A stretch of 41,458 nucleotides of DNA from a virus. The stretch lies in the UHGV virus genome UHGV-0205600; one strand, given 5' to 3'. Under the pieces are notes generated by a model that searched no databases, had not been told where the DNA came from, and saw nothing but the letters and a program-made list of their open reading frames with translations. Positions 1-41,458 of the stretch are shown here, in pieces. The translations under genes and the position numbers were made by a program. Positions within the stretch are counted from its first letter, which is position 1, and each line of letters begins with the position of its first letter.

Positions 1-9
1 ATGTGGCTG

Positions 10-951
10 TTAAATGCCATCAACGTACGAAATGGTTTCTTTGTACACTGGCTCGACTGCACCCAGCTTGCCGTAGTAAGTGACGATCTGATACAGACCG
101 CGATACTGCACCGGCACGCTCTGAAGCGGAACCAGCGGGTAGCGGACGTATTTTTTATCGTTGGTGTACGCAACCATGCGATCCTTATTCCCCACACCAC
201 GGCCTTTCAGCCATTTAACCGCGCGGATATTCAGCGGAATACCGTTCTGGTGATAGCTGATGGTGTTGGTCTGAAGGTACGTCAACAGGGACTGGTTACC
301 CGCAGATGAAACGATGATGCTGGACAACAGAGCAAACTGCTCAGGCGGGATCAGCAAATCACGCGGAACCACAGAGTAACCGGAAGCGGCCCACGCATCA
401 GACAGCACCTGGTTAATGCTTGCGCGGATTTCGTCCGGTGTTGAGGTTGCCCACGTTTTGGCAGCGTTGTTGACAGGCACACCGTCCAGGGTAACAAGAC
501 CTTTCAGGTTTAATGCGGAATCGCCAACATACACCTGTTCATCGTTATCCATCTGCCATTTCAGTTGCATCCCGTCATACTTCTGCGTATCGATCGGGCG
601 TCCGACCTGCTGAGCAGCCTGCAATTCTATGACCGTCCAGCCAAGTTCCATCCCCCACAGGTTCAGCGGGTTACCGGATTTGCCGATATCCACGTTTACG
701 CCAGCAATAGCGGTTGAGTCTTTGCCTACCCAGTTTTTGCCATTCGGATTTGCACCAGTACCCGCAGCGGCGAAGCTGGTATTCGTCCAGCTGGAAATGT
801 CATCTGCGATGGAGACATCTTCACGCAGTTGGATATCGCGGGTCCAGGTGTACCCCACCAGTGGCAGGTTCAGCGTCTGGTCGAGTCGCTCCAGCTCCCC
901 GATGAGAAAGGCACCAGAGCTGTCAACGGTTGCCTGATCAAAAGTAATCAT
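10..951 (-). CDS. major capsid protein
   Basis: 313-aa ORF, last gene of the head operon downstream of portal, F-like and scaffold genes; assignment by position and size. Confidence 0.6.
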   Translation of the reverse strand: MITFDQATVDSSGAFLIGELERLDQTLNLPLVGYTWTRDIQLREDVSIADDISSWTNTSFAAAGTGANPNGKNWVGKDSTAIAGVNVDIGKSGNPLNLWGMELGWTVIELQAAQQVGRPIDTQKYDGMQLKWQMDNDEQVYVGDSALNLKGLVTLDGVPVNNAAKTWATSTPDEIRASINQVLSDAWAASGYSVVPRDLLIPPEQFALLSSIIVSSAGNQSLLTYLQTNTISYHQNGIPLNIRAVKWLKGRGVGNKDRMVAYTNDKKYVRYPLVPLQSVPVQYRGLYQIVTYYGKLGAVEPVYKETISYVDGI

Positions 952-962
952 TCGTCTGTTCC

Positions 963-1469
963 TTAAATCTTCCAGGAAATTTCTGCATTGCCGTCAGCAT
1001 CACCGGCACCTGTGAATTCAGCGTTGGTCAGCACCACGTTTTTGCCACTGACTGACGTGGCCATGAATCCACCCAGCGGCACTTTGATGGATTCATCAGT
1101 GGAGACGACAACGTATACCGGGTCGCCTTTTTTGATGGTGCTGGCATCAAAATCAGAACCGAGATTAACGGTCACGTAGCCACGCTTCATTGCGTCGCCC
1201 GGGAAGTTCTTGCCACTCCCCACCTGGCGAACCATGTCCGGCTGCGAAGTGGTCGGATAAGGGCGCACATAGATCCCCTTCACCTTGTCTGCGGTATCAC
1301 CATCTGCCAGCGGCACGAAAAAACCGTCATCATCGTATTTACCAGCCAGCCCATAGGCAGCAAAGGCGTTATCGGATTTAAGGACCACCGGTTCGACGGT
1401 TAAGTCCTGCGGGCGAGAGACAGCCCCGGCAATGCCAACAGGCATCCGGTACAGAAATACATTATTCAT
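963..1469 (-). CDS. head protein, possibly decoration or scaffold-associated
   Basis: 168-aa ORF between the putative scaffold/protease and capsid genes; assignment by position only. Confidence 0.4.
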   Translation of the reverse strand: MNNVFLYRMPVGIAGAVSRPQDLTVEPVVLKSDNAFAAYGLAGKYDDDGFFVPLADGDTADKVKGIYVRPYPTTSQPDMVRQVGSGKNFPGDAMKRGYVTVNLGSDFDASTIKKGDPVYVVVSTDESIKVPLGGFMATSVSGKNVVLTNAEFTGAGDADGNAEISWKI

Positions 1470-1472
1470 TTT

Positions 1473-2693
1473 TTACCCTTTACGGTTTGCCCAGAATTCA
1501 GCGTTTTGTTTGTTCAGGGAAGCGATACTGGTCATGCCCATATTTGGGCGCTGTGCATCGCCGGTGGTGGCGCGGGTGTTTCGCCCTTTGGCAATCTCAG
1601 ACACGGCATTAAACGCCATGTCGACTGATTGTTTCGGCAATTTGCGGATATCCGCATCACCGACTATCTGGCGAACCAGCGTTTTGTCAGCAGAAGCCAG
1701 AACCTCACGTTTGAACGCGGTCGGTTTCATCTTACGGCTCAGATCAATACCCGGAACGATAACTTCGGCACGCCAGGCTGAGTCACCAGTAATCGTGGTT
1801 TCCTCTTCATCGTCCTCGCCGTCACCGGTCGGATTATCGTCAGGCTTATTGTCGTTATCGCCCGTCGCATTTCCTTCCAGCTTAGCCAGCAGGGCTTTCA
1901 GTAATGTTTTGAGGTCATCATCACTGTCGCCCGTTGGACCTCCGCCCATCTCTGGTGCTTTGTCCGGTAGCGGTTGCTGTGGGGACAGGTTGATGTTGAG
2001 ATTAACGCCCTGCGGCAAATCCCCCTCATCTCCTGTAACCGATGCGGGAGCCGACTCCACCAGTTCGTTCATGGTGTCAGCGTCACCCGTTTTGATGGCC
2101 GTGCGCATGCGGGTCCACCAGCTTTTCTTTTGATTTGCCATTGTGTCTCTGTCTCCAATTGCACAACGATTTCCGGCTCTGCCTTTAGGGACAAGAGCCA
2201 CATGGTTTCCGGTAATATCAACCTGCTCAGCCTTACCCGGCTCAGTCTGCTTATATTCCGCGTCATAGCCACACGACACTTCGCGCAGGCCATCTTCGAT
2301 CAGCTGAATGGCGTTTTCGTCTTTGACGATAAGGTCAGCCAGCATCAAATCAGACTGCACACCCGTCCCGCGCCGGACATTCTGAAGATGCCCGACCGCG
2401 AGCTCTTTCCAGTTCTCTGGATTCACCAGCCGCACATCCCCGTTTTCATCCTCGGGATGCAACACCGTGATACTCATTCCTTCGAATGAGGCAAGCGTGG
2501 CGGGATGGAATACCTGCTCAGGAGAACGCGTGACGACTATTTCACCGAACTTATCGGGTTTCAGTTTTGGCAGGTCATCAGCACCATAGAGCTGCTTACC
2601 TGTTCGTCCTATCGGCACGTCTTTGCACAGCAACGAGCCGTCAGCCAGCTGATAGCGGGTTTCCCCCAGCCGGGTATTGAAAAAATATTTCAT
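1473..2693 (-). CDS. putative prohead protease/scaffold protein
   Basis: 406-aa ORF with a central acidic Asp/Glu/Gly-rich linker, located between the head morphogenesis and capsid genes. Confidence 0.5.
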   Translation of the reverse strand: MKYFFNTRLGETRYQLADGSLLCKDVPIGRTGKQLYGADDLPKLKPDKFGEIVVTRSPEQVFHPATLASFEGMSITVLHPEDENGDVRLVNPENWKELAVGHLQNVRRGTGVQSDLMLADLIVKDENAIQLIEDGLREVSCGYDAEYKQTEPGKAEQVDITGNHVALVPKGRAGNRCAIGDRDTMANQKKSWWTRMRTAIKTGDADTMNELVESAPASVTGDEGDLPQGVNLNINLSPQQPLPDKAPEMGGGPTGDSDDDLKTLLKALLAKLEGNATGDNDNKPDDNPTGDGEDDEEETTITGDSAWRAEVIVPGIDLSRKMKPTAFKREVLASADKTLVRQIVGDADIRKLPKQSVDMAFNAVSEIAKGRNTRATTGDAQRPNMGMTSIASLNKQNAEFWANRKG

Positions 2694-2707
2694 GTGTTAC
2701 CTGCGAT

Positions 2708-3442
2708 TCAGGCGGGATAAGAATGGGAGGTGGGAAAAACGATTTCTTTATAACAGCGACAATTCGGGAGCTCGCCAGCGTGACCGGTCATGCCATCAAG
2801 CGTTGGAGGTTTGCCCCATTCGACAAATTTACCTTCCATTTCCCGATGAGAATGCCTGACGTCACCATCTTCGGCTGTACGCCAGATATAACCATTCGAA
2901 CCAATTGCCAGCGCACGCGCCTGATCCAGCGCGCCGGTTGCACGTCCAAGTTCAGTACGGGCAATCAGGTCAGCTCTGGACTTTGCTATATCACCCGATG
3001 CGGCTATTTCTTTAGCAAAATGTTCCGCTCTCCCACCGGTCACAACAGCTTCAATCGCCCGATTCTGGATGTCGTACACCCTGTCAGCCGCCTCGAGGGG
3101 TAGCGATTTAATGTACTTAACCTGTTCAGCAACGATGGATTTCATCACCTGCCCTGGCGGGGCACTGTTTACCAGATTGCGTAGCTCACGGCTGATGGTT
3201 TTGCTGTGTTTACGCCACTGCTCATCATTCTTGCGCACAATATCGGCAGTAAAGTTTTCCGCGACCTTTGTCGCCCAGGGGGTGATGATTTCACTGTAGC
3301 GTTCCAGCGCCTCAATAATTTCCGTGATACTGTCATTTGAACCATCGTAGTGACCATTTACGATGTCCCCTACCGCCCGCGCTATCCTGCGTAGGCTGGT
3401 TCGATACCGGATTTCCGCCTGACGGTTCCTGCGGTTCGTCAT
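2708..3442 (-). CDS. head morphogenesis protein (Mu F / SPP1 gp7-like)
   Basis: Immediately downstream of portal; C-terminal GELPNCRCY-type motif typical of the F-like family; the longest ORF (to 3481) overlaps the portal end, so the start is probably an internal Met. Confidence 0.65.
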   Translation of the reverse strand: MTNRRNRQAEIRYRTSLRRIARAVGDIVNGHYDGSNDSITEIIEALERYSEIITPWATKVAENFTADIVRKNDEQWRKHSKTISRELRNLVNSAPPGQVMKSIVAEQVKYIKSLPLEAADRVYDIQNRAIEAVVTGGRAEHFAKEIAASGDIAKSRADLIARTELGRATGALDQARALAIGSNGYIWRTAEDGDVRHSHREMEGKFVEWGKPPTLDGMTGHAGELPNCRCYKEIVFPTSHSYPA

Positions 3443-4799
3443 CAGGTTCGCCGATGCCGGGCGGCGCTTCATCTTCGGCATTCTCGATGTCCTCGTCGGT
3501 AATGGATGCCCCGATGCCGGTTACGTCAGAATTTTCTCGCAAATCAGTCATAGCGGCTTTCAGTGTCATCAGACCATCACCCAGCGCTGTACTGATTGCG
3601 TTGGTAGTGTTTAACGCCACCGTTGAGCGATCGACATCAGACATTTGCCAGAGCGGGTTAAACTCAAACGTGAAATCGTCCGGCAGCGGCTTGCCAAGCT
3701 CCGAACGATGCATGATGTCCAGTATCCGCCGCACCGGAAGACGTAAACGCCTCTCCTGCAACGAGCTTACCCGGTCGTAATAGTTGGCAAGGTCTGCATC
3801 GCCGGTAGAAAATCCCTTCGGGGACTGTCCGAACAACCGCACCAGTGGGATACCAACAGCGCCACTAATCTGTTCTGCAAACTGTGAAAGGATGTCATCC
3901 AGACCACTGAAGCTGTACTGATGGGTTTCAAACTTATCCCGCGAGTCCATGAGAGTCATGCCTTCATTGCTCTGGAACTGTCGAATCAGGTCAATATTCT
4001 TCAGCAACGCTTCATACGCAGGACCACCAAGTGCGATAAGCTCGCGTAGCTTCTCCACGCTGTAGGTACGCAAATGCGCTTTGTAGACCAGCTGCGCCGC
4101 GCCGACAGTAGCGCTGTCGAACGCGGTAAGACGATCCCAGATACGCTCTACAACCGACATTCCCCATTCGTTCTCGGTCATCTTCTGCTGAAATGGCAGC
4201 GTGACGCCATCAAAGCGAATCAGTCGACTGTGATGAATGCGCCAGGCAGGAATTCCCGTTGCTGTGGTCACCACATCGTAAAACTCAGGTTTACCCAGGT
4301 CCGGCCCCATATCTTTAATGCGGCGGGTCAGTACCGGGTCAATCATCCAGCGGTCGAGCGGGAGAATCCCCTTAAACTTGCCCTTACCGATGGTTTCGGG
4401 TCGCAGCGGGGTCATTGGTGCCTGCCCCTCAATCATGATGAAACCCACCGCGCCGCCGTAGAGGCGCGACCATTTCAGCACGTCATTCAGCGCATCCCAG
4501 ATTTGCAACTCATCCAGTTGTGATTCGAGAATGCCGCGATCTTTTGCATCAATTTCCGAAGTGATGCGAATGCCTTTGCGGGTCATATCATCCGGGATAG
4601 CATCGACCGCTTCGCCGATGATCCAGGACGAACGATAGGACCATTCCACCAGCATGCGGTTACGACTGGTGAAATTAGCCCGGTAGGTGGATGCTGAGTG
4701 CTGGTTAGTTGTCTGCATCCCTACGCGGGCAATAAAATTCTCATAACCATCAGCTGTGGCCTGCGCAGTTCGCCGCAGGGCTTGTTTGTTTCGTGCCAT
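3333..4799 (-). CDS. portal protein
   Basis: 488-aa ORF directly downstream of the large terminase with a 1-nt overlap and an acidic C-terminus; position and size typical of a portal. Confidence 0.7.
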   Translation of the reverse strand: MARNKQALRRTAQATADGYENFIARVGMQTTNQHSASTYRANFTSRNRMLVEWSYRSSWIIGEAVDAIPDDMTRKGIRITSEIDAKDRGILESQLDELQIWDALNDVLKWSRLYGGAVGFIMIEGQAPMTPLRPETIGKGKFKGILPLDRWMIDPVLTRRIKDMGPDLGKPEFYDVVTTATGIPAWRIHHSRLIRFDGVTLPFQQKMTENEWGMSVVERIWDRLTAFDSATVGAAQLVYKAHLRTYSVEKLRELIALGGPAYEALLKNIDLIRQFQSNEGMTLMDSRDKFETHQYSFSGLDDILSQFAEQISGAVGIPLVRLFGQSPKGFSTGDADLANYYDRVSSLQERRLRLPVRRILDIMHRSELGKPLPDDFTFEFNPLWQMSDVDRSTVALNTTNAISTALGDGLMTLKAAMTDLRENSDVTGIGASITDEDIENAEDEAPPGIGEPDDEPQEPSGGNPVSNQPTQDSAGGRGHRKWSLRWFK

Positions 4800-6421
4800 C
4801 AGGCCTGTCTCCCTAGCAGCTCCCAGATGTTCAGGGCTGAATTCATTGGGGCATAGTTGATCATCACCGAGTCGGCAAGGTTTGGCGATCGGGTTCCATC
4901 AGGCTGTTTATCAATAACTATTTTTCCCACACCATTAATGGAATAGGTCGGCTGCGAAAGCTCGATGATGAGTTTATCTTTGAGTGCCATGCTACTGCTG
5001 ATTGAGATGATTTCGTCCGGGTTGTAAGCCATACCTTCAACCACGGCGCGCCAGGTATTCTGAAAAAGTTTACGTAACCGCCACCAGCTCTGGGCTTTGG
5101 CGTTAGCGAAGAAGTCCTTGTTCAGACGTGCGGCTTGCCCGTTGTCCCCGCGAACAGCTTCATCATCCGGATCAAATACCGCGCCACTACCTCGAAACGG
5201 TGTGGCAAGTATTGACGGTCGACGCGCAGCGTTACGCAGTTCGTTGATAGCGCGTGCATCGCCGCGAACGCCAGCGCCCAGCCCGTCCTCGTCAAAGCGA
5301 AACTCTTCGAGGTTGTCCTGTTCGCAAAAGCCGAAAACCTTCTCGACGGACTGATAAATGTCGCTGCCCACACCGGACCATTCCCGCACATTTTCCAGGA
5401 GGAAGCCATGACGGGTGGAAAAGGCATTTTTGTCCCTGCCTTCATCAGCGACATCCATCGCGCCAAGTCGTTTGCCTGTTGGCTGGATACCCAGTCTGAT
5501 ATGCGCATCAACGGCAGCCTGTACCCATTCGGATGGAATCAGGACGCCTTCCGCTGATGCGCTGTAGTTCAGATCAAGTTCCTGTGCCACCACCACCGGA
5601 TTATCGATTTTCTCGCATTCCCTGCGATACCACTCTTCATCCTTGCGAGGATCATCCCGCCAGTGGAATGTGAATACCGGTATCTTCCCGCCATGACGCT
5701 TCTGAGCGAACGGGTTAGCCATGCCGTTAACTGAACTCAGGTCGATACGGCAACGCGTCGTTTGTGACAACGCCGCATCAATCAGCAGAGGACGCTGAAG
5801 GAATGCAGCCTCATCAACCAGATAAAGCGTGGCACGGTCACCACGACCAATATTATCGCCAGCCTCGCCTTTGATAACGGCACCAGTTTCAGGAAACTCA
5901 ACACGCATATATGGCGCGTGCTTCTTCTCGCTCCACGAACCGCGAAACTCTACAGGTAGTGTTTCCACGAACTTGCGCGCCTTCCAGAACAATGCTTTCG
6001 GGTCACCGGTGCTGTCGACGTATTCCTCTTTACGGGAGCCGAAACCGATAACCATTTCTTTGTTGAAGAGACAAAGCGAGCAGGCCAGTCCGATCGCGGT
6101 CCAACTGAGCCCCATTTCACGGGATTTTTCGGTAATACCATTCTCCCTATTGCCCCAGCGTTCCATAATCCAGTGGATCCACTCCTCCTGCTTAGGGAAG
6201 AGTAAAAACGGAATGGTCACCGGCAGGCCATAATCAATATTACGCGGGTCCGTTGTCATGCCCCAGTCGATGATGAACTGAGCCGGGTTGGTTCGGTAAA
6301 ACTGTTTTAGTGCTGGCAATATTTCAGGGTTCTGGCGAATGCGCTGTAAGCGTTCCATCCGCCATTCAAAAACCATCTGGTAATCAGGATTTTTAAAATC
6401 GAAGGGGAATGGTAACGGCAT
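4799..6421 (-). CDS. terminase large subunit
   Basis: 540-aa ORF following the small terminase; N-terminal ATPase-like and C-terminal nuclease-like layout; canonical terS-terL-portal order. Confidence 0.85.
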
Positions 6422-6423
6422 AC

Positions 6424-6975
6424 TTAGCCCATCATTTTTCTATACGCCTCTGCAGCCTGCTCCGGCGTTAAGTTGGTAATTTCTGTTCTGACTGGTCCTC
6501 CATCAGCGCCAGTCACTTCATTTTTGACGTTGTCTTTAAACGCCTGAACAGAAACATGACGCCCAAGCAACTCAAGGTTTTTAACCTTATCAGGCCATTT
6601 GATTTTCTTCAGAAGTGCGGCGCTATCTGCGGATACCATCTCCATGACATCCATTCCTGATAGCGTTGTGCGCCATACCTTAGGCCAGTCTTTAATGGGT
6701 TTTAGCTCACCGTTTTGCAGGAGAATGTCAAGCACATCCATCTGGTCGATTTCAATAAGGCGATTAAGCACATATTCTGCATTAATACCAACAAGATCAT
6801 TGCGTTGCGCTTTCAGTTCGGCGATTCTTAACTTGATGTCAGGTTTTGACAGGTTTTCGGATGCGGTACGGTTAGCTGTCTTAGCGCTGTACCCCGCCCG
6901 AATAGCCGCTTGCGTGGCGTTTAAATCGATGAGGTACTCGCGACAGAACATTTCTTGTTTGTCGGTGAGTGCCAT
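6424..6975 (-). CDS. terminase small subunit
   Basis: 183-aa ORF with N-terminal [15 protein letters not shown]...[12 protein letters not shown] helix-turn-helix typical of small terminases; directly upstream of terL. Confidence 0.75.
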
Positions 6976-7002
6976 GTATCTCTCTCTTAAAAAGGAAGCT
7001 TT

Positions 7003-7212
7003 ATGTCAAAAAATCCACGTACCCCTAAATTTAAAATCGGCGACATTGTTTATTTGGTTTCAGGCGGCCCGGCGATGGCTATTCAGGAGCCAATCATAAA
7101 CAGCTTTGATGTTTTTGTTGGTGATTACTGGTGTCAGTGGTTTTCAGGAAGAAAGCAAGAAAGAGCCAGATTTCCAGAAGAATCACTGACTGCTACCAAC
7201 CCAAAGCCGTAA
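7003..7212 (+). CDS. small protein, DUF2158/YodC-like
   Basis: 69-aa ORF with KIGDIVYLVSGGPAM motif resembling the YodC/DUF2158 family; divergent from terS. Confidence 0.5.
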   Translation: MSKNPRTPKFKIGDIVYLVSGGPAMAIQEPIINSFDVFVGDYWCQWFSGRKQERARFPEESLTATNPKP

Positions 7213-7247
7213 ACCCAAACGCACTCAAGTTGTCTCTTACAGACGTG

Positions 7248-7496
7248 ATGAAGTGGATGATGGCTCAGTTAGAATATGACGGTTGCCTGTATCAGGAAGA
7301 CGTAGTTGATTATTTAGTCAAACTCGATAATGAGCAGTTTCTGAAAGAAAATGCTGATGGTAATCTTGTTTTATCTACACCTGTCATTACCCAATTCCGC
7401 AAAGTAAGCGGTGATAAAGTGGTTTGGGTTAAGCCTGAGCGATATTGGCGTTATCGCGTTAATGAAGATGAGCCTGGTCGCGAAGCGCGCGGATAA
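7248..7496 (+). CDS. hypothetical protein
   Basis: In-frame ATG at 7248 (MKWMMAQ...) within ORF 7131..7496, 36 nt after the preceding gene; about 83 aa; no recognisable motif. Confidence 0.4.
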   Translation: MKWMMAQLEYDGCLYQEDVVDYLVKLDNEQFLKENADGNLVLSTPVITQFRKVSGDKVVWVKPERYWRYRVNEDEPGREARG

Positions 7497-7677
7497 ATAA
7501 TCTGTGGTGACTCTGTGTTATGGTCACCATTCTTATTCAACGGAATCCAAGTCCGGTTTTACCATAATTCTGCACCTAAAGTTAAAGCCATTACAATGAT
7601 GCTACCCATTTGACGGCAATAGAAAAGCCACTCGCACTTGCCAGTGGCCCTATGTCTTTTACTAAATCGCAGCTTGA

Positions 7678-8418: not shown

Positions 8419-8531
8419 CGATTTGCTCCGATACCGGTGTGTGAAAAAATCATAATGAATTCATCCACCAGAATAATTGATGTGTCACATCAATTTACGC
8501 TCGAAATATTCAATACATCAATTAGCCCGTA

Positions 8532-8969
<438 letters not shown>

Positions 8970-18447: not shown

Positions 18448-18466
18448 TCTATGAGGATATGAATAG

Positions 18467-32779: not shown

Positions 32780-32796
32780 ATAACATCCCCAAAAAA

Positions 32797-32818: not shown

Positions 32819-32841
32819 TTTTCAATGAATACTAAAAATGT

Positions 32842-34253: not shown

Positions 34254-34255
34254 GC

Positions 34256-34558
34256 TTACTCCGTTGATACCAGTAAATGGCTGCGACCGCCCAGGTCAGT
34301 TTTTGTGGGGTAATCCTGTGTGTTGTCATCACAGACCACCACCAGCTTAAAACCAAGCCCCATACAGGCGTACTGCGCCAGCAGGTCGGCACCAGTGACG
34401 AGAGGAATACCGGAGATTACCGGCTCCCCTCTGTCGTTCTGCAGGTCCATAATCCAGTACAGATCGCGCCATATGATGCTAATCCGCCAGGTAACACCAC
34501 CTAAGACGATGCTGAACTGCTGGTTGTCCGCTGTCAGCGGAATTTCCTGAATTGTCAT
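34256..34558 (-). CDS. tail protein
   Basis: 100-aa ORF in the tail block with tight spacing to neighbours. Confidence 0.4.
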   Translation of the reverse strand: MTIQEIPLTADNQQFSIVLGGVTWRISIIWRDLYWIMDLQNDRGEPVISGIPLVTGADLLAQYACMGLGFKLVVVCDDNTQDYPTKTDLGGRSHLLVSTE

Positions 34559-35145
34559 TAGCCGCCCCCCAGTAATGACGCCACGTTACCCGTGATGCTT
34601 TTCAGCAGTGAAGTATCTGGAGGCTTTGTGGTTTTGTTGCCGCTATTCTGTACCGCCGACGTGCTGGCCCCTTCCTTCATGTTGGTTTTATCCGCGACGG
34701 TAATCTGCTGTGTCCGGGAGATAAGGACCTCCCTCAGGGTGAGGACGGCGGACAGGACGTTTTCGGTTGTCTTGTCCGTCGTCACTTCCAGCGCCCGGAT
34801 CAACATGTTGCTGTACAGTCGTTTACCGGTTACCACATCGAAGGGGATACGGCTTTCCTGCAGATCCAGTAGCTCCTGATACGTCTGCTGAGGACTCAGG
34901 CCGAGCAGGCTGGTAGCCGTCAGATTACTGGCAAAATCCAGCAATGCGCCGTCACCGGCGAAACCAACCTCCATCACCACTTCTGACGGTTTTTTATAGG
35001 CATGATCAGCGACAGCGGCCCCAACCTCTACCGGATGCTCTGTTATTTCAAGCATATCTGTATGCTTCTCTGAAATAACAACACTGGGAACAATCATTCC
35101 TATTTTTCTGCTCTGCTGATGAAAAAGTGTAGAGAGAATATCCAC
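34558..35145 (-). CDS. tail protein (DNA-circulation-like position after tape measure)
   Basis: 195-aa ORF immediately downstream of the tape measure gene; assignment by synteny. Confidence 0.4.
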   Translation of the reverse strand: MDILSTLFHQQSRKIGMIVPSVVISEKHTDMLEITEHPVEVGAAVADHAYKKPSEVVMEVGFAGDGALLDFASNLTATSLLGLSPQQTYQELLDLQESRIPFDVVTGKRLYSNMLIRALEVTTDKTTENVLSAVLTLREVLISRTQQITVADKTNMKEGASTSAVQNSGNKTTKPPDTSLLKSITGNVASLLGGG

Positions 35146-37133
35146 TAACCCACCCTCACCTGATTACTTCGCATGACCTGAGCATTTGCAGACTGTTGCC
35201 GACGTGCAACCTCATTACCGACAGCGTGCGGATCTCCGCCACCGTAAATGTGGTAGGTATTTTGCTGGTTAACCTCTGTCACTTTGCCACTAATTCCCGC
35301 CACGGCAGCCTTATTAATCAGCTCTCGAGAATAGATATTTCTTCCATTCTCATGCTGGATAATGCTGCTCATCAATGCTGACATGGTTTGCGGATCGCTC
35401 ATATTCAGGGCAGCCCGGGGATCCACTCCCAGTCGTTGCGATACAGCCCTGATATACGCAGTTGTGTTGTTATTATCAGACGCAGGTGCCCAGGTAGAGA
35501 TAATTTTCTCCACACTGTTTATTCCCCGTCCGGCGTACAGCATTAACTGACGAGCAAGAGCCCGTAATCCATCAAAGGCAGTTTCAAATCTGGCAAATCG
35601 CCCGCCCGGGCGTTCAAGAGAAGCCCCTGCCTGACCAGCAAAATTAAGGTTTCCCGGATTGTTATTCCGTTCTCCTCGTTTCGTAGCCTGTGCATGTTGT
35701 TCCGGCTCATCATCACCAAACCAGCCGCGTACCGTCCGGCCCACACTGCGGGGATCAAATCCCCAGTGCTCTTTAATCCAGTCGGCAGTACTGTTAGCGC
35801 TGTCTGTAACCATCGGCATCGCTGACGGATTTTCGCTGCCCTGATTAAGTATCTGTTTGCCGATGCTGACGGCATCAGCCCAGCGGCCATCTTTGATAGC
35901 GTTGAGCAGGTCGGCGATCATGTTCAGCATTTTGCTGAATTCGCCCATCTGGTCGATGAAGTTGCTGAAATCCCACTTCAGGGACCATGATTTGGGGTCA
36001 ATATTGAGCAGTTTCGCCAGCGCTTTCACCAGGTCGTTAACGGTCGTTTTAAGGTCACGAACCATCTTCAGCGCGGCATCAACCTCCGGTTTCCACTTGC
36101 CCCAGTCAATCAGGCTGTCGCCGCCTTCCTTCCAGGTCTGATAGTCCTCCCACAGGAGGGCAATCCCCGCCGCCAGCGCGGTAATGAGGCCAATCGGCGA
36201 CATCCAGAACGTACTGTTCAGAATGCGCAGCGCAATCGTCAGTGCGCCAAACAGCGAGATCAACTCCCGCGTTTGCTTATCCAGCGATTGCCACCAGGTG
36301 ATGAGGCCTGATGTCCCCTCAATCAGTCTGAAGAACAGCCGCCCGATAATATCCCCGAGCGCCAGAATGCCTTTTATGGCTTTCGTCAGGGTCTGCTCGA
36401 TACGCGGGAAGTTGTCCAGGATATGGCGGCGCAGTGTGTCCAGCGAACCCGCAAGCCCACCCGCAAGATTAGAGCCGATTTTGTCACGGGCCATGCCTGC
36501 CATCGCGCCAAACTCACGCAGGGAGGTCATAAATTTGTTGGAGCTTCTGGCCGCCTCGTCAGCATTGAAGCCGATAGCTTTCGCCATTGCGCTGTACTGC
36601 CCGGAGAAGCCACCCACACCGCGACGCATAGCCAACAGGGTATTTTCGTCAATGCCCAGCATCTGCGCATACTGGTTAGCACGGTAATACGGCATGTCGC
36701 TGAGCTTCTGGCCTACCCCTGTAAAAATAGCGGCCATGTCACGCATGTTACCGCTGGCATCCCGTGTCTGTACCCCCAGACGATTCAGAAATCCCTCCGC
36801 CCCGGGATTATTACGAATAAACCGGGAGAGGTTTTCCAGAGAAGATCGCGCAGCGTCCACGCTGCCGCCAACCTGCGAAACCGCATAGCCAATAGACTGA
36901 ATTCCCTGGACTGTCGCGCCGGTGCGCTGTGACGCCCAGTAAAGATTATCCAGGCCGGAGGCGATCTTAGCCGTGAAGGCCACCACGGACAGCGCCGCTC
37001 CTTCGACGGCCAGCCCCATTTTGATGACATTTGCAGTTGTACCGGCGAGGACAGAACCGAATTTTTTCGCTCCTGCATCATCCACACTGAAGCCAAGCGA
37101 GACAAGGAAATCTTTAATAGTCTCGGCGTTCAT
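35145..37133 (-). CDS. tail tape measure protein
   Basis: Longest tail ORF (about 660 aa), helical/Ala-Gly-rich with hydrophobic central segments; downstream of tube and chaperone genes. Confidence 0.65.
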   Translation of the reverse strand: MNAETIKDFLVSLGFSVDDAGAKKFGSVLAGTTANVIKMGLAVEGAALSVVAFTAKIASGLDNLYWASQRTGATVQGIQSIGYAVSQVGGSVDAARSSLENLSRFIRNNPGAEGFLNRLGVQTRDASGNMRDMAAIFTGVGQKLSDMPYYRANQYAQMLGIDENTLLAMRRGVGGFSGQYSAMAKAIGFNADEAARSSNKFMTSLREFGAMAGMARDKIGSNLAGGLAGSLDTLRRHILDNFPRIEQTLTKAIKGILALGDIIGRLFFRLIEGTSGLITWWQSLDKQTRELISLFGALTIALRILNSTFWMSPIGLITALAAGIALLWEDYQTWKEGGDSLIDWGKWKPEVDAALKMVRDLKTTVNDLVKALAKLLNIDPKSWSLKWDFSNFIDQMGEFSKMLNMIADLLNAIKDGRWADAVSIGKQILNQGSENPSAMPMVTDSANSTADWIKEHWGFDPRSVGRTVRGWFGDDEPEQHAQATKRGERNNNPGNLNFAGQAGASLERPGGRFARFETAFDGLRALARQLMLYAGRGINSVEKIISTWAPASDNNNTTAYIRAVSQRLGVDPRAALNMSDPQTMSALMSSIIQHENGRNIYSRELINKAAVAGISGKVTEVNQQNTYHIYGGGDPHAVGNEVARRQQSANAQVMRSNQVRVG

Positions 37134-37310
37134 TATCCTCTCTCCATTTCTCAATGCGCCGCTGGTTATCCGCTTTTACCGCCAGATGGTCATTCAAGAG
37201 AGCAATGTCGTACAAATCGACAGAGCCATCTTTAAGTGCTGTATAAGGAATTAACCCGGCGTCAACCGGATTGAGAAGGTAGGACAGCCCGTCCGGCAGG
37301 CTGTTAAACG

Positions 37311-37763
37311 TCAGCCCTGTTGCAGGCTCTGCGTCGTGCTGGTAAGGGGTGTAGGCAAAAAATTTCCCAGCGAATCGGCGACCACCCGCGCCACCAGCTG
37401 CAGCATGACCAGCAGGTCAATATCATCAAACATCAGTTCGCCCTGGGTAAATACCGGCACCCATCCGTCCATATGACGCCGCGATACCACCGCAAGACAG
37501 GGATGAATAATCGCATCGGTGTCATCTTCGGTCAGGGAAGACAGTTCCTCAGCGATACGCGGGAGCATGGTTTCAAACACCGGTTTTAACTGCTCGAATT
37601 TCACGGTGTCGATTTTGCCGTCAGCAGGCAAACGGGAGCGAATGCTCCCGAAATCTGACATCATTCCCGCCAGTACCGGCAGAAGTTTGCGGGTCACTTT
37701 CAGCTGGTCAAAAACGCTGAGTTTTGCCACGCGATATTTCACGCCTTTGATTTCGAATTCCAT
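37311..37763 (-). CDS. tail assembly chaperone
   Basis: 150-aa acidic ORF between the tube and tape measure genes. Confidence 0.4.
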   Translation of the reverse strand: MEFEIKGVKYRVAKLSVFDQLKVTRKLLPVLAGMMSDFGSIRSRLPADGKIDTVKFEQLKPVFETMLPRIAEELSSLTEDDTDAIIHPCLAVVSRRHMDGWVPVFTQGELMFDDIDLLVMLQLVARVVADSLGNFLPTPLTSTTQSLQQG

Positions 37764-37766
37764 GTA

Positions 37767-38207
37767 TTAAAACTCCCCGAGAACCTGGTCAATCTTGCCG
37801 CAGTCAAACACCCACGGCATCGTATTACCGGTTTTAGCGTTGGCATTATCCGGTTGTTTCTGGAACGCAACACTGCGTGCCGTGATGATGTCGCCGCTGA
37901 CCTTGTTGCGGATCACGATAACGTTATTCCCCCATGTGGCAGAAGACTGGCTCTGTGCGTTATACGCCAGCGACAATTTTTTATTTGTCGGTGATGTCTT
38001 CAGAAGGTTAACGGTAATCGTCCCGCTTTTATCTGCATGGAGGCTGTGCATCACTTCACCATCAGCACCGATGGTCATGGTGTTTTTAGGACCGCCCATC
38101 GCAACCACAATCCCCTCTTCAGAACTTGCAGAACCGTACCCGAGGTCAATCGAACCGGTCGGGCCGGTCAGCGTCGCAGTGACATCCATAAAAGAATAGG
38201 TAGACAT
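37767..38207 (-). CDS. tail tube protein
   Basis: 146-aa ORF directly downstream of the sheath-like gene. Confidence 0.5.
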   Translation of the reverse strand: MSTYSFMDVTATLTGPTGSIDLGYGSASSEEGIVVAMGGPKNTMTIGADGEVMHSLHADKSGTITVNLLKTSPTNKKLSLAYNAQSQSSATWGNNVIVIRNKVSGDIITARSVAFQKQPDNANAKTGNTMPWVFDCGKIDQVLGEF

Positions 38208-38217
38208 TCACTTCCCC

Positions 38218-39363
38218 TTAGCGAACAACGTTAATCTGTACGTCAGCGTAATGAACCGCGCCTGCAAGTTTTATTGCAGCCTGAATCACCGGAGCCTTAC
38301 GGGCTTCACGTTCTGATTGTGCCTGTTCATCCAGCGGCTGGGCGTATACGTAATAACCTTTGGGCAGTGTGTCACCTGATGACAACTGACCAAGGTCGCC
38401 CCCGTTCCATACGCCCGGAGCAATCAGTCCATTCTGAACGGCCTGATCCAGTGATTTTTCAACATTTGATAACAGTCGGGTAATACCGGCTTCAGTCTGG
38501 GGAACTTTCGTGGTGCTGGTATAAAGCAGGTTATAGAGGTTGGTCTGCACATAATTCTGTAACCAGTCCAGGCCGTGGCGTTCATCAAAGAAATCGCCGT
38601 TAGCCATCACTCCCTGCTGGAGGATAGCCGTATCATTCTGGTAGTACACGAATACATTGCAGTTTTTTGCATCAAGTGCCGATGCCTGGCTGACTGTCAG
38701 TGTTTCATACCCGACACCCGGCTCCTGCTTAAACTTGAGCGTAATCGCGGTATTACTGCCATTGAAATTAACCGTGAATACCCGGCCAAATGCAGATAAC
38801 GCAGCGTATTTATTACCCGATGAATACTGAATAAAACTGCGTGAATATCCGGCGGTTTTCAGTTTTGATGCCAAATCATCGCTGGATGCAGTCTGCAGGC
38901 ATTTATCATCGCTTGTCGTAATCGCCAGAATACGGCTTACAGAAGAGGATTCGATCGCCGCAGCCACTTTCAGCCAGTCTGCATCCGGAATATCTTCATC
39001 GTCTGCAATCCCCAGCCCATACCATGAAGTATAATCGAGCATGGCATTCACAGCCTGCTCCAGCGTCTCAAGCGTGGCCTGTTCGCTGTCACCCTTCGTT
39101 TTCACCCAACGACCAACAAAAACCTCCTGAGGTTTCGGTGATTGTGAGAAAAACACCTGCGCAGCCTTATATTCTGGTGATTCCACGCCAAAATCTTTTC
39201 CAATATCTTCCGCGGCAGAATAACGGCGAATGCGCTCACTTACCGGAATGATTGTGGACGGGCCGAGAATGAGTAATGCACCAAAATTTCGCCCTGATGC
39301 TGCACGCGGCGACATGATCACATCAACATTAACAACGTTTGATACAGGCAAGCCCTGTGCCAT
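38218..39363 (-). CDS. tail sheath-like protein
   Basis: 381-aa ORF upstream of the tube gene in a contractile-tail gene order. Confidence 0.55.
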
Positions 39364-39366
39364 AGC

Positions 39367-39975
39367 TTAATCTCCGAAAAAGATGACTGGTGCTTCCACC
39401 AGCGATTTAATACCGTACTCGCGCACAACCTTCCGGCGCAGGCGCACCGTCATATCGTAGCGGCGGACCCATTGCTGATTAATAAGTTCAGGGAAGGGGG
39501 TCAGACCTGTGTAATCGCCAAGAGACAGCCCCAGCGCATTCAGTGCTGCATTGTTCTGCGGTACAGATATACCGTCACGAAACCGGGACGCATACACCAT
39601 CCCCGCCGGACCATAAAACGAAGCCATACACTCAATCGTTTCATGCCGCCAGAGCTTAGAGCCATCATCGGTCTGTCTGGTGAATGCCGGACTGTCATCA
39701 CCTGACCATCCGATAACCCCAAACGCACACCAGTTCGTTTCAGCCGGTAGCAGTGGCGGCTGCTCTTTCTGCCAGCGCGGGCGAACCATCCCGGCAGACA
39801 GACCGGAAACGTTACGCATCCACTGGCTTAACAGCCTGTCGAGCGCTTCGTCATAATCCGGATCGCCACTGGTTGGTATCAGCCATCCGCGCTCTGTACT
39901 GGTGTTATTGCTCAACCGGAATTCCCCCATCAAACGGCAGCAACTCACAATGCGCCTGAACGAATCCGGCACCAT
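39367..39975 (-). CDS. structural protein, head-tail joining region
   Basis: 202-aa ORF in the operon between head and tail genes; start uncertain. Confidence 0.35.
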   Translation of the reverse strand: MVPDSFRRIVSCCRLMGEFRLSNNTSTERGWLIPTSGDPDYDEALDRLLSQWMRNVSGLSAGMVRPRWQKEQPPLLPAETNWCAFGVIGWSGDDSPAFTRQTDDGSKLWRHETIECMASFYGPAGMVYASRFRDGISVPQNNAALNALGLSLGDYTGLTPFPELINQQWVRRYDMTVRLRRKVVREYGIKSLVEAPVIFFGD

Positions 39976-40294
39976 AAGCTGTATACGGGTCGACGAAGGT
40001 CACACGATAATCACGGCCCTGATACGTCACGATATCGGCATCACGGCCAGTCTGTCCCTGCGTCAGTCGCTCAGTCGTCACAATCAGAATTGCACCGCTG
40101 ATTACCTGCCCTGCCTGCATACGGCGGTTTTCCAGAGAGCGATCAACAGTTACGACTCCGGCAAACTGCTTTTTAACTTCGCTGTCGCTGCCGATCCCGT
40201 CCTCATCCACCGTTTGCACTCGGCGTGTTACCCACAAATTGAAGTCGCAAAAATCGGGGTCAAAAAGCACATCTGTTACATCAAGAGTCGGCAT
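39905..40294 (-). CDS. structural protein, head-tail joining region
   Basis: 129-aa ORF overlapping neighbours within the structural operon. Confidence 0.35.
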   Translation of the reverse strand: MPTLDVTDVLFDPDFCDFNLWVTRRVQTVDEDGIGSDSEVKKQFAGVVTVDRSLENRRMQAGQVISGAILIVTTERLTQGQTGRDADIVTYQGRDYRVTFVDPYTAYGAGFVQAHCELLPFDGGIPVEQ

Positions 40295-40835
40295 CTTTAT
40301 CCCTCACTACATGGGTAATAGCTCTGCGATATTGCCCGGTGTCAATTAATGGTTTCGCCAGATCGGTTCCGGGAGATTCGCCAGCAGCACGCCGGGCAAG
40401 TTCCAGTGTTGCCCCCTTGCGCCCCCGACGAGCCCGGGCTTCAACAGTACTGTCAGCAAGCGGCGTAAAGCCGGTAATGGTCATGTAACGCCTGACACCA
40501 TTAACGGCCAGCGTTCCGGCACGGTTGAGTGCGCCTTCTGCTCCCGCAGCATTACCATCCAGTGCAGCCTGCGCCGCGGCTTTGAGCTGCGGCACCGTCT
40601 GCTCTTCTGCCGATTTAACGCCGGGGGCCAGGTGAGGTCGTGGCGGGATGTTCTGCTCTGGTGAGCCGTATTCGTTGAGGTAACCGATGCCCGCATTACC
40701 AAACGGAACATCATCCCGCTCGCTGTCTTCCGAAGGGATGCCGACCAGCACATCTTTTTTGGTTAACGACCTGAGCGCATCCAGAATGGCCTTAGCGTTA
40801 TCCACCCTCGTTGTTACACCGCTTTTGAAACTCAT
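40281..40835 (-). CDS. structural protein, head-tail joining region
   Basis: 184-aa ORF within the structural operon. Confidence 0.4.
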
Positions 40836-41239
40836 AGCTGGCGACCGCCTGCACCGAACATCGTGATCAACTGATAAAATTCAGCGCCATATCGGGTGTT
40901 ATTCCAGAAACCTGCATCAGGATTCAGCGTCGCGCTGGTGTCATAACTGACGCTTACCTTATCCACGGACTTTGAGGACTGAACACCATTGGTTGAACCG
41001 CCCGAACCACCAGCCAGCATCGCCCGGCTGTCTGCCGCCCAGAGCGTCATGTAGTGCGCAACGAACAACCCGGCAAAGTACGGAAACAACTTTTTGCCGG
41101 TGACGTTTTCGCTCAGCAGTTCATCGGCCAGATTCAGACGAAACTGGATTTGCGCTTCGGGATATTTGGCAGGGTCAGCAAACTGCGGGAAGTCGCGGCG
41201 AAAATCACTTACCGCTGGCAGACTTTGATTCTTTGGCAT
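40832..41239 (-). CDS. head-tail connector-like protein
   Basis: 135-aa ORF that would directly follow the capsid genes if the window is circularly joined. Confidence 0.45.
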
Positions 41240-41426
41240 TTTTTACCTCGTTACGCGCGTCTGTGGCTTTGCCAACGGATACTTCCGCGTGCGCACGAGT
41301 GAACCAGTGCGTGGCAACGTCTTCCTCCACAGCATGACGGCCTTTAACAAACTCGCGCCGTGAACCGTCGGGAAGCGTGAGCACAAACGGGGTATGTACG
41401 TGTATTACTGCATTATTTTTTGCCAT
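41205..41426 (-). CDS. small structural protein
   Basis: 73-aa ORF at the window end; would follow the major capsid gene if the sequence is circular. Confidence 0.35.
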
Positions 41427-41458
41427 CGGGTCATCCTTAATGGCCCCGCCAGGGGGCC

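Follow-up and report, generated by a model that had tools for sequence, protein, structure and literature searches.

A temperate lambdoid phage genome of the E. coli/Shigella type built from known exchangeable modules, with a virion module predicted to be of SEN34 rather than Mu type

SEN34 is a Salmonella phage of the genus Brunovirus that falls in cluster "temperate 26" of the lambda supercluster of Casjens & Grose. It is a myovirus by electron microscopy, lambdoid, and classed as a new lambda cluster (PMC5261728). The window, that is, the entire 41,458-nucleotide stretch analysed here, shares the order of its genes from TerS, TerL, portal, head, neck, sheath, tube, TMP, baseplate and fibre through to O-acetyltransferase, int, exo-bet-gam, repressors, cII, O, P, nin, Q and lysis; in both, the O-acetyltransferase adjoins the tail fibre genes and int, and the virion proteins are collinear at 65-96% amino acid identity. 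The DNA differs, with 75-84% identity over ~49% of the window and no match reaching 90%, and SEN34, whose host is Salmonella diarizonae, has a different integrase, immunity, Q, lysis genes and cargo. The best described phage covers 55% of one 25-kb half of the window in nucleotide comparison; the first-pass annotation's expectation that no single described phage would be collinear with the genome therefore holds for the DNA but not for gene order, which SEN34 shares. The window is a whole temperate phage genome of the E. coli/Shigella type assembled from well-known exchangeable modules (Table 1), a mosaicism ordinary among this group of phages. It very probably represents the complete, circularly permuted, excised-attP genome of a temperate lambdoid E. 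coli/Shigella phage, the backbone of which is a recurrent prophage lineage.

Identities were obtained by local blastn/tblastn against reference genomes, including lambda, 21, P22, SfV and Mu. These comparisons reproduce the chimera that had been read from the sequence, in which modules of lambda, phage-21 and P22 type surround a heteroimmune cI/cro, along with nearly all of the proposed protein identities; the exceptions are the Mu-like tail and baseplate and the phage-21-type spanins. The virion module matches the phages vB_EcoM-606R2/611R5/683R1/689R2 at 94.5-98.3% over 18.2 kb, contiguous across the window ends: the 606R2 match passes from base 41458 directly onto base 1 (local blastn), and the window is therefore a circular permutation. 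The early region of the 606R2 group is wholly different (DNA polymerase, helicase, another repressor); differences also occur in the N-terminus of TerS, the tip of the tail fibre, the baseplate island and the middle of the TMP. Similarity to 606R2 ends within TerS at ~6612 (blastn, sliding identity) and that of the backbone returns at ~29083 within the fibre gene, where residues 1-125 are the only part matching 606R2 and a yak prophage, the host-range C-terminus having been swapped. Headful packaging, as claimed earlier, is suggested by homology, the TerL nuclease domain resembling Sf6 gp2 (PDB search, E 4.8e-27); the sequence of the whole window reveals neither a recognisable pac site nor terminal redundancy, and its ends do not overlap. 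Virion morphology and headful packaging are inferred from relatives, and we likewise infer viability and what the cargo genes do.

The contractile tail and baseplate had been described as Mu-like, which would make the virion half a Mu-like (SfV-like) tail joined to lambdoid early genes, the situation in phage SfV. The order of spike, small wedge, Baseplate_J, small wedge, fibre and fibre-assembly genes does resemble Mu gp45-gp50, Baseplate_J is common to Mu and the window, a head protein of the Phage_Mu_F family is present, and TerL has 30% identity to Mu gp28 across 200 residues (tblastn). However, similarity to Mu DNA is nil, with zero bases covered, and SfV DNA gives a single short match in the virion module, within the tail fibre gene near 29100. 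At the protein level, fibre residues 98-129 share 84% identity with SfV, and the fibre-assembly protein shares 35% with Mu; at E 1e-3, tblastn matched none of the other tail and baseplate proteins to either phage. The Pfam families also differ: those of Mu are Phage_sheath_1, Tail_tube, DNA_circ_N, GpP/GPD, Mu_Gp45, GP46, Mu_Gp48, Mu gpT and Portal_Mu, whereas the window has DUF3383, KPP10_Orf10, Dit_like, Pam3_gp18, E217_GP41, DUF2612, DUF2184 and DUF1073, and of eight Mu tail and baseplate families it holds one, the generic Baseplate_J. Even this protein is nearer to XM1 gp16 (PDB search, E 4.9e-17) than to the 360-residue "gp47" chain of 9ki1 (E 0.0052), which we take to be Mu gp47, and the N-domain of the spike is unlike that of Mu. 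A Mu-like or SfV-like tail module was thus rejected at the family level and is scarcely credible; the Mu-like tail and HK97-like head of SfV are unrelated to the virion module of the window. The module is instead of the SEN34/Brunovirus myovirus type, with XM1, Pam3 and E217 as its closest solved relatives, and the sheath resembles XM1 7kh1 (E 6.9e-41) and Pam3 8hdr (PDB search).

The other half of the genome is lambdoid. Segments 11289-15101 (97.6-98.2% identity, with nin, ren, P, O and cII at 98.2%), 17305-17393 and 17455-17737 resemble lambda DNA and between them take in N and the nut sites, and positions 17989-21952 (ral to exo) are 97.8% identical to lambda. In agreement with the earlier reading, N, Ral, CIII, Kil, Gam, Bet, Exo, CII, O, P, Ren and NinB/E/G are 93-100% identical to their lambda counterparts. 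Likeness to phage 21 consists of a single contiguous 5.3-kb block from R21 to O (9459-14757, 97.7%), which contains Q21, pR'/QBE, tRNA-Asn, tRNA-Thr, S21 and R21, and of the ral-to-ea segment (97.0% over 17989-21952); ninC and ninD are absent from the nin region, as in phage 21, and a Q21 paQ site was found by motif search. cII and N are lambda-type, unlike those of phage 21. The proposed phage-21 lysis genes hold for the holin (100%) and the endolysin (98%) but not for the spanins, which are P22-type: Rz/Rz1 has 90% amino acid identity to P22, against only 56% to phage 21, with a crossover from P22-type to phage-21-like sequence near 9600-9650 (sliding identity). Compared with lambda and phage 21 together, the window differs in its immunity core, rex-position gene, int/att, spanins and all virion genes.

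Lambda similarity stops at 15101, just beyond cro. The different immunity type noted previously is borne out, as Cro has no tblastn match in lambda, 21, P22 or SfV and cI is a hybrid with a non-lambda 5' half and a 3' half (15684-16108) 93.6% identical to lambda. The cI/cro DNA is 92-93% identical to Stx phages 2851, Nil2 and Stx2 II, 98% to Dewey and Louie and 100% to phi458. Operators were assigned from a single 20-nt inverted copy, and the motif derived from it is not enriched over the genome. phi458, an APEC prophage, matches 9449-11283 at 93.6%, 11314-21186 at 99.1% and 21537-23723 at 98.9%, with identical cro/cI, the same integrase and the same 348-aa rex-position gene (100%). Electron microscopy shows it to be a siphovirus (PMC9701743), and megablast finds no counterpart of its virion module in the window. 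The early half of the window thus sits on a siphovirus, and the virion half on other early regions. This occurrence of each half in other combinations is observed directly, as are the sequence relationships and the junction coordinates.

The P22-like Xis, Int and attP claimed before are confirmed. The module occurs at thrW in SfV, SfI, SfII and SfIV (97-98% DNA identity to the window) and in P22 (80% DNA, 90% Int protein), and the window shares an identical 46-bp attP core with SfV, P22 and E. coli thrW/attR. These phages also carry a surface-polysaccharide-modification gene near attP, which in the window lies 3.3 kb from the core; their cargo is gtrABC, that of the window an acyltransferase and a nuclease. 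A motif search of the xis/int module found no TTGC-N6-TTGY CII site. As this canonical site for int expression is missing, and defective lambdoid prophages are frequent in E. coli, the sequence might be a defective or satellite-like remnant incapable of forming plaques. Every essential module is nevertheless present with full-length alignments to homologues, and attP is intact with int and cargo joined across it, the excised configuration. Close relatives (the vB_EcoM-6xxR series and SEN34 for the virion, phi458 for the early region) are deposited as phage genomes, and particles of SEN34 and phi458 have been observed by electron microscopy; a remnant is therefore unlikely, and the complete temperate phage remains preferred.

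The arrangement is not unique to the window. A prophage of E. coli QML220601 (NZ_CP132063, 3,789,554-3,833,110), situated at thrW adjoining proA, has the same module order and attachment site and covers 33,151 of the 41,458 bases (80%) at >=90% identity, mostly in blocks of 97-99%. It differs mainly at islands 6976-9700, 21177-21461, 24003-29079 and 32430-32854, where its cargo consists instead of FRG-domain, AAA ATPase and HNH genes together with an invertible pinE fibre segment. The window's virion module, its island 1 and the block from Q21 to R21 all recur in the SCU-171 prophage, which however has other immunity, recombination and integrase genes and lies elsewhere, adjoining torS. These chromosomes bear on whether the contig is an assembly chimera of at least two co-resident prophages joined at shared repeats, for the junctions fall on short sequences conserved in many lambdoid phages that could mislead an assembler, among them the 5' end of Rz, the b-region-like linker and tail fibre codons 98-129. 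Independent complete E. coli chromosomes nevertheless carry several of the major junctions unbroken: virion, TerS, Q21 block, immunity, int and attR in QML220601, TerS, island 1 and lysis in SCU-171, and attP with the 488-aa gene in many genomes. The acyltransferase-to-virion stretch (26673-41458) is found in NRZ14408 at 98.7% in three gapped pieces (55% query coverage), so contiguity of the tail fibre junction is only partly shown. With the window ends also joining collinearly in 606R2, an assembly artefact is highly improbable.

In the preferred reading, a SEN34-type myovirus module with a P22/Sf6-like headful terminase, DUF1073 portal, DUF2184 capsid, DUF3383 sheath and XM1/Pam3/E217-type baseplate is coupled to a phage-21-like late and replication block, running from the 5' end of a mostly P22-type Rz (~9459, crossover ~9600-9650) via R21, S21, the tRNAs and pR'/QBE through Q21, nin, ren and P up to O. 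Lambda-type cII, N and both nut sites surround cro, OR and the DNA-binding half of cI, a non-lambda immunity core of Nil2/2851/Stx2-II type, followed by a pL operon, ral to exo, common to lambda and phage 21, and by xis, int and attP of SfV/P22 type targeting thrW. The modules were presumably joined by recombination at short conserved linkers or intragenically at domain boundaries, as at the N-terminus of TerS, the 5' end of Rz, mid-cI and tail fibre codon ~125. Interdependent parts were probably co-inherited: the S21 pinholin travels with the R21 SAR endolysin, Q21 keeps its own QBE/pR', and lambda N is matched by lambda boxB at both nutL and nutR. Accessory genes lie at junctions, where insertions leave operons unbroken.

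Table 1. Modules, genes and sites of the window with their positions
Feature	Position	Strand	Basis or remark
Head and packaging genes	10..6975	-	Pfam; 606R2 98.3% over 1-6612; SEN34 proteins 80-96%
Major capsid, DUF2184	10-951	-	Pfam
Cement protein	963-1469	-	Pfam
DUF2213	1473-2693	-	Pfam
Mu-F-like head morphogenesis protein	2708-3481	-	Pfam
DUF1073 portal	3333-4799	-	Pfam
TerL	4799-6421	-	Pfam; PDB likeness to Sf6 gp2
TerS, Terminase_2 family	6424-6975	-	Pfam
Variable island 1, virion/lysis boundary (TerS to lysis), GC 44%	6976..9269		Pfam, PADLOC, PGAP names
YodC-family ORF, island 1	7003-7212	+	
DUF6953 ORF, island 1	7131-7496	+	
S1/trypsin-like peptidase, island 1	7678-8418	-	
P22-like remnant, island 1	8910-9050		
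Rz spanin gene, P22-type (embedded Rz1 expected)	9270..9719	-	tblastn, sliding identity
SAR endolysin R21	9704-10201	-	98% aa identity to phage 21
Pinholin S21	10201-10416	-	71/71 residues identical to phage 21
tRNA-Thr and tRNA-Asn	10535-10690	-	ARAGORN
pR' late promoter with Q-binding element and terminator, phage-21 type	~10690-10790	-	pR'/Q-binding element 102/102 nt same as phage 21
Q21 antiterminator	10782-11327 (ORF)	-	99% identical to phage 21
NinG, NinF, NinE, NinB, then Ren, P, O	11314..14662	-	Lambda 93-100% aa (O 100%; P, Ren, NinB, NinG 99%; NinE, NinF 93%); phage 21 99-100%
cII (lambda-type), pRE, nutR	14695..15101	-	CII 100% to lambda, 40% to phage 21
pRE CII site	14966-14979		TTGCGTTTGTTTGC; motif search; lambda type
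nutR boxB	15064-15083		Inverted pair with nutL boxB
Heteroimmune core: cro, OR region, cI	15108..16094		
cro	~15108-15323	-	HTH_3
cI	15399-16094 (PGAP) or 15360-16094 (ORF)	+	HTH_3 and Peptidase_S24
348-aa gene, rexAB position, right after cI on the same strand (cI to pL), GC 42%	16120..17166	+	phrog_6191, function unknown
OL operator-like copy	17281-17300		Inverted copy of 15349-15368
nutL boxB, lambda	17355-17374		Inverted pair with nutR
N, lambda-type	17481-17813	+	93% identical to lambda
pL operon, ral..DUF4222	17989..22252	+	Pfam; proteins 94-100% identical; order ral, ea10, cIII, kil, gam, bet, exo, orf60a, orf63, orf61-like; to lambda (aa) Ral, Ea10, CIII 100%, Kil, Bet, Exo 99%, Gam 98%
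TraR/DksA zinc-finger gene	21757-21975	+	Pfam
DUF4222 gene, phage-21-like	22023-22301	+	Pfam
Integration module	22243..23848	+	DNA 97.2% to SfV, 80.4% to P22
xis	~22273-22623	+	95% SfV, 87% P22 (aa)
int	22500-23663	+	98% SfV, 90% P22 (aa)
attP core, 46 bp	23678-23723		3' end of tRNA-Thr thrW
Low-GC cargo island, attP to tail fibre genes	23849..28040		
LmuA/Cap4-like nuclease, 488 aa, GC 33.5%	24117-25583	-	
173-aa unknown	25899-26420	-	
Conserved lambda b-region-like linker	26454-26631		
Acyl_transf_3 O-acetyltransferase, GC 31%	26974-27999	+	
Tail fibre assembly protein	28042-28452	-	Caudo_TAP
Tail fibre	28437-29453	-	Gly_rich_2
Baseplate genes	29435..35145	-	Pfam; PDB matches to XM1, Pam3, E217, phi92 baseplate proteins
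DUF2612	29435-30115	-	Pfam
Baseplate_J	30112-31311	-	Pfam
Wedge-like protein, 117 aa	31311-31664	-	
Spike	31664-32416	-	
Variable island within baseplate block, GC 36%	32434-32853		
141-aa protein	Between variable island and hub	-	
E217_GP41-like hub	33186-34253	-	Pfam
Pam3_gp18-like plug	34256-34558	-	Pfam
Dit-like protein	34558-35145	-	Pfam
Tail and neck genes	35145..41426	-	Pfam; PDB; 606R2 DNA identity 94.5-97%
Tape measure	35145-37154	-	
Tail assembly chaperone	37311-37763	-	
Tube	37767-38207	-	PDB likeness to Pam3
DUF3383 sheath	38218-39363	-	Pfam; PDB likeness to XM1, Pam3
Neck terminator	39367-39975	-	
Neck and adaptor proteins incl. DUF4054	39905-41426	-	Pfam

The cargo stretches do sit at module junctions, as had been proposed, and appear as gaps in alignments to the closest relatives; there are three (TerS/lysis, cI/pL and attP/tail fibre), with an additional variable stretch inside the baseplate block. 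Their accessory genes probably serve defence, exclusion and O-antigen acetylation, and the leads offered by the genome are these uncharacterised cargo genes only, notably the LmuA/Cap4-like nuclease adjoining attP. The rex-position gene has no Pfam or PADLOC match; among deposited phages it is found in phi458 alone, and the homologues found were all from Enterobacterales. The attP/tail fibre island has no megablast match in phages, and positions 23660-26635 occur at 99.7% identity in many E. coli genomes. Island 1 is present in its entirety in two of 5426 complete E. coli genomes; it also has small ORFs.

From its list of open reading frames and its composition, the 41,458-bp window is laid out as a whole temperate phage genome. 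The phenomenon is textbook lambdoid mosaicism, familiar since the modular theory of phage evolution; the literature already includes lambdoid myoviruses such as SfV and SEN34. The combination of a lambdoid early region, a SEN34-type myovirus and integration at thrW is likewise already represented by a described phage and many sequenced prophages; the value of the genome is mostly bookkeeping, as a clean and well-resolved case of lambdoid modular exchange. The practical gain is accurate annotation, with a virion that is SEN34-type rather than Mu-like and spanins that are P22-type, and a further gain is that four or five insertion hot spots are now mapped, their uncharacterised cargo being open to screening for defence or lysogenic-conversion functions.

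Features of the phage genome, in window positions
Feature	Position	Strand	Remarks
Head and terminase genes	10-6975	-	ORF list
Island 1	6976-9269		YodC-like, DUF6953, S1 peptidase
YodC-family ORF, DUF6953 ORF, 246-aa S1/trypsin-like peptidase	7003-8418		between TerS and lysis genes
Lysis genes	9270-10416	-	ORF list
Q and nin	10782-12722	-	ORF list
ren-P-O-cII-cro	12778-15323	-	ORF list
cI	to 16094	+	followed by the 348-aa gene (+)
Gene in the rex slot (rexAB position)	16120-17166	+	348 aa, phrog_6191; 25 nt after cI, same strand
N through exo	17481-21023	+	followed by small ea-type genes
xis-int	to 23663	+	followed by attP
attP-proximal island	23849-28040		488-aa protein, 173-aa protein, Acyl_transf_3 O-acetyltransferase
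Low-GC stretch	24-28 kb		GC 31-40%; after attP
488-aa gene	24117-25583	-	GC 33.5%
173-aa gene	25899-26420	-	beside the 488-aa gene
Acyl_transf_3 O-acetyltransferase	26974-27999	+	GC 31%; 3.3 kb from attP
Baseplate-operon hot spot	32434-32853		420 bp, GC 36%; between spike and hub genes
Tail fibre, baseplate, tail and neck genes	to window end	-	ORF list

The match to Escherichia phage vB_EcoM-606R2 (606R2) passes from base 41458 to base 1 without a break, and because it crosses the ends, the window is a circular permutation of a closed genome; no terminal overlap is present in it. An intact attP links the integrase gene to the cargo, and the state captured is the excised form, not the prophage form. 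The C-terminal nuclease domain of TerL resembles Sf6 gp2 (4idh, E 4.8e-27; 8dkr, E 6.7e-33) and TerS matches PF03592 (Terminase_2), with headful packaging being plausible from the TerL homology; the packaging signal of SEN34 was not identified (PMC5261728). P22 has an unannotated remnant (40745-40990) that resembles the TerS N-terminus (window 6725-6974), with 75% DNA identity and 52% protein identity across residues 36-89; it lies downstream of rha and upstream of gene 3 of P22 itself.

The first-pass annotation, largely correct in what it observed and partly correct in how it read this, had given the virion a Mu-like contractile tail and baseplate, a claim that was rejected after blastn, tblastn, Pfam searches of both protein sets and a PDB sequence search, and that is its one substantive error. 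When the lambda, phage 21, SfV, P22 and Mu genomes were compared locally with the window (blastn, tblastn), Mu was found by blastn to have no DNA in common with it, and the tail and baseplate proteins had no tblastn match to Mu or SfV except for the fibre-assembly protein (35% to Mu) and a short conserved fibre segment (residues 98-129, 84% to SfV). The Pfam families of the head are DUF2184 capsid, E217/Pam3-type cement, DUF2213, Phage_Mu_F, DUF1073 portal and Terminase_2, those of the neck and tail are DUF4054, tail-terminator_9, DUF3383 sheath, KPP10_Orf10 tube and TAC_15, and those of the baseplate are Dit_like, Pam3_gp18 plug, E217_GP41 hub, a spike with the Apex motif, Baseplate_J and DUF2612. 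The counterparts in Mu are Phage_sheath_1, Tail_tube, DNA_circ_N, GpP/GPD, Mu_Gp45, GP46, Baseplate_J, Mu_Gp48, Mu-like_gpT and Portal_Mu; only Baseplate_J (PF04865, E 8.6e-16 for the wedge protein of the window) is common to both sets, and nearly all contractile systems have a member of this family. A Mu-type sheath and tube (Phage_sheath_1, PF10618) are absent, as the window has DUF3383 and KPP10_Orf10 where Mu has Phage_sheath_1/1C/domII and Tail_tube. DNA_circ_N (gp43), the GpP/GPD hub (gp44), the Mu_Gp45 spike, GP46 and Mu_Gp48 were all found in Mu and in none of the window proteins at E 0.01.

In the PDB sequence search, the sheath comes nearest to the solved structures of XM1, a Vibrio phage (E 6.9e-41), and of the cyanophage Pam3, which is also the nearest for the capsid and tube. 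Chains of Pam3, E217 and phi92 are matched by the spike as well as by the Baseplate_J protein, the latter also matching XM1 gp16 (E 4.9e-17); stronger matches were obtained to 9zd7 gp88 (5.1e-31) and 9ndy (2e-24) for the Baseplate_J protein and to 9ndy (2.7e-13) for the spike. The weakest PDB match of the Baseplate_J protein (E 0.0052) is the 360-residue 'gp47' chain of 9ki1, which we take to be Mu gp47.

The virion module is collinear with that of Salmonella phage SEN34. Comparison of 27 virion ORFs (10-6975 and 28042-41426, with the island ORF 32495-32779 left out) gave matches in the same order for 26, TerS being the one without a match; the head, tail and baseplate proteins are collinear and 65-96% identical in amino acids, with the fibre-assembly protein (37%) and a 141-aa protein (50%) below the rest. 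Electron microscopy shows SEN34 to be a myovirus, and with its lambda-like genome and myovirus morphology it founded a new lambda cluster (PMC5261728). This micrographic evidence, taken with the XM1/Pam3 sheath and tube homologues, suggests by analogy a contractile tail for the present phage. As SEN34 aligns to 20,159 of the 41,458 bases at 71-84%, roughly 39% overall and below the ICTV genus criterion of about 70% nucleotide identity over full genome length, the phage shares the SEN34 virion type but, by that criterion, not the genus Brunovirus. The centre of the tape-measure gene (35713-36085) diverges from both 606R2 and SEN34 between conserved flanks; the whole protein is 74% identical to that of 606R2 and 99% to that of the thrW prophage in E. 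coli strain QML220601.

The early region has lambdoid hallmarks: divergent cI/cro between pL and pR, an N antiterminator and nut sites, and, in lambda order, O/P replication, nin, Q with pR' and a lysis cassette. The lambda matches given in the first-pass annotation were reproduced by local blastn and tblastn, and the early proteins are 93-100% identical to lambda: Ral, Ea10, CIII, CII and O are at 100%, Kil, Bet, Exo, P, Ren, NinB and NinG at 99%, Gam at 98%, and N, NinE and NinF at 93%. Lambda DNA matches cover 11289-15101 (97.6-98.2%), 15684-16108 (93.6%), 17305-17393, 17455-17737 and 17989-21952 (97.8%). Positions 9459-14757 also form a single uninterrupted phage-21-like block (97.7%), collinear with phage 21, that holds R21, S21, tRNA-Asn, tRNA-Thr and Q21 (99%); the late promoter pR' with its Q-binding element (QBE) is the same as that of phage 21 in 102/102 nt, and the nin region is the short phage-21 version, without ninC and ninD. 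In sequence terms, the early region is as much phage 21 as lambda. The only elements specific to lambda are N, both nut boxB hairpins (15064-15083 and 17355-17374) and cII, which is 100% identical to lambda against 40% to phage 21. CII sites of the lambda type lie at pRE (14966-14979) and within Q21 (10945-10958); the TTGC-N6-TTGY CII-binding motif of a CII-dependent pI site was not found in the xis/int module (22000-23700).

In the lysis cassette, the S21 pinholin (71/71 residues) and the R21 SAR endolysin (98%) are phage-21 alleles, confirming the earlier assignment of these two genes. Phage-21 Rz/Rz1 spanins were considered and rejected, Rz being P22-type (90% aa identity to P22 vs 56% to phage 21) with P22-like DNA at 9279-9673 (94%); the crossover in Rz lies near 9600-9650, in the conserved first ~25 codons.

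The immunity region had been described as heteroimmune, correctly: Cro (HTH_3) matches nothing in lambda, phage 21, P22 or SfV, and CI (HTH_3 and Peptidase_S24) is a hybrid with a foreign DNA-binding half and a lambda-like C-terminal half. Lambda similarity ends at lambda coordinate 38247, just past cro, and restarts at 35583, just inside pL, the classical limits of an 'imm' substitution. The same cro/cI recurs at 100% DNA identity in the APEC phage phi458, at 98% in the podoviruses Dewey and Louie, and at 92-93% both in CP-933H-type prophage repressors and in the Stx phages 2851, Nil2 and Stx2 II; the immunity type is a common one. A 20-nt OR sequence (15349-15368) that recurs inverted in OL (17281-17300) is a candidate operator; this assignment is tentative because the motif derived by eye from OR and OL, ATAC-N5-GTAY, is not enriched genome-wide (45 matches vs 39.7 expected).

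The integration module holds as P22-like at the family level (Int, 387 aa, 90% to P22; Xis 87%), and its near relatives are the Shigella flexneri converting phages. Across xis, int and attP, DNA identity is 97.2% to SfV, 97-98% to SfI, SfII and SfIV and 80.4% to P22, with Int and Xis at 98% and 95% to SfV. The window, SfV, P22 and E. coli attR share one and the same 46-bp attP core (23678-23723); in attR this core makes up the 3' end of thrW, a tRNA-Thr gene neighbouring proA, and a related prophage adjoins the tRNA-Thr next to proA.

No described phage among 50,697 records is collinear with the whole genome, the best covering 55% of one 25-kb half and none covering more than that of either half. 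At >=90% identity, described phages jointly cover 79.4% of the window; what is left is exactly the island set and the centre of the tape measure gene. The QML220601 prophage covers 33,151 of 41,458 bases at >=90% identity and differs at 6976-9700, 21177-21461, 24003-29079 and 32430-32854. phi458 shares the early, immunity and integration half (11314-23723) at 99% and is a siphovirus by electron microscopy (PMC9701743), a direct case of one early half on both a siphovirus and a myovirus-type genome. The same virion half is found with three different early regions. In 606R2 the early region is unrelated; the prophage of E. coli SCU-171 shares the virion half together with island 1 and the Q21-to-R21 block, but differs in its immunity, has a RecT-type recombination module and sits at another site with a different integrase. 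Because the halves recur in other combinations, each circulates on its own, and the window represents one of many permutations.

Several crossovers lie inside genes, at domain boundaries: ~6612 in the TerS N-terminus, ~15684 in mid-cI and ~29083 at tail fibre codon ~125, with a further one at the 5' end of Rz. Others fall at short sequences conserved among many lambdoid phages, such as 26454-26631, which together with 23857-24011 flanks the 488-aa/173-aa cargo; these two segments share 83-87% identity with phage 21 and with the b region of lambda (24162-24340 and 27308-27464), and look like conserved recombination linkers, the first being named a 'capsid protein' fragment by PGAP in E. coli genomes. 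Coupled elements moved together (pinholin with SAR endolysin, Q21 with QBE, N with both nut sites), as the modular-exchange model predicts.

The location of cargo at module junctions, also proposed in the first-pass annotation, holds for island 1, the rex slot, the attP-proximal island and the baseplate-operon spot. Promoter and terminator scans of the islands gave counts not above shuffled expectation, and for this reason do not show 'moron' status. The 488-aa protein has no Pfam, PHROG or NCBIfam match, although 6/31 homologues match Mrr_cat, and it carries an N-terminal PD-(D/E)xK-like motif with invariant D74 and Q88-C89-K90. Its AlphaFold model (pLDDT 84.7) has Lamassu LmuA as best PDB neighbour, followed by MspJI, Cap4, Cdn1 and Can2 (E 8.6e-4), and a weak PADLOC match to LmuA was also seen; with moderate confidence, it is predicted to be probably a stand-alone nuclease defence effector, possibly working with its 173-aa neighbour, an ORF for which no match of any kind was found. 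Many E. coli genomes carry both genes at prophage ends, with 99.7% identity. The 348-aa gene occurs only in phi458 among deposited phages, with homologues found only in Enterobacterales; its low-confidence model has an OB-fold-like C-terminal barrel, and it may be a lysogen-expressed exclusion gene. The S1 peptidase has weak PADLOC matches to the protease domains of RT-Protease_XI and Avs1b, and the complete island 1 is present in only 2/5426 complete E. coli genomes. No PADLOC system match above noise was obtained for the 488-aa protein, the 348-aa protein or the YodC/DUF6953/S1-peptidase cluster. It is conceivable but rather doubtful that one or more of these islands (the 488-aa LmuA/Cap4-like protein with its helical C-terminal domain, the 348-aa gene, the YodC cluster) encode an anti-phage or exclusion function; if true, the junction islands would carry a function not yet described.

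The best match of the O-acetyltransferase among all deposited phages is only 28.5% (TL-2011b), and because of this a serotype-specific assignment is not possible; it is a divergent allele, and the Sf phages carry gtr genes in the equivalent island. On its plus strand, the baseplate-operon spot has a 94-aa ORF that weakly matches a zinc ribbon, and 606R2 and the QML220601 and SCU-171 prophages each have different genes at this position.
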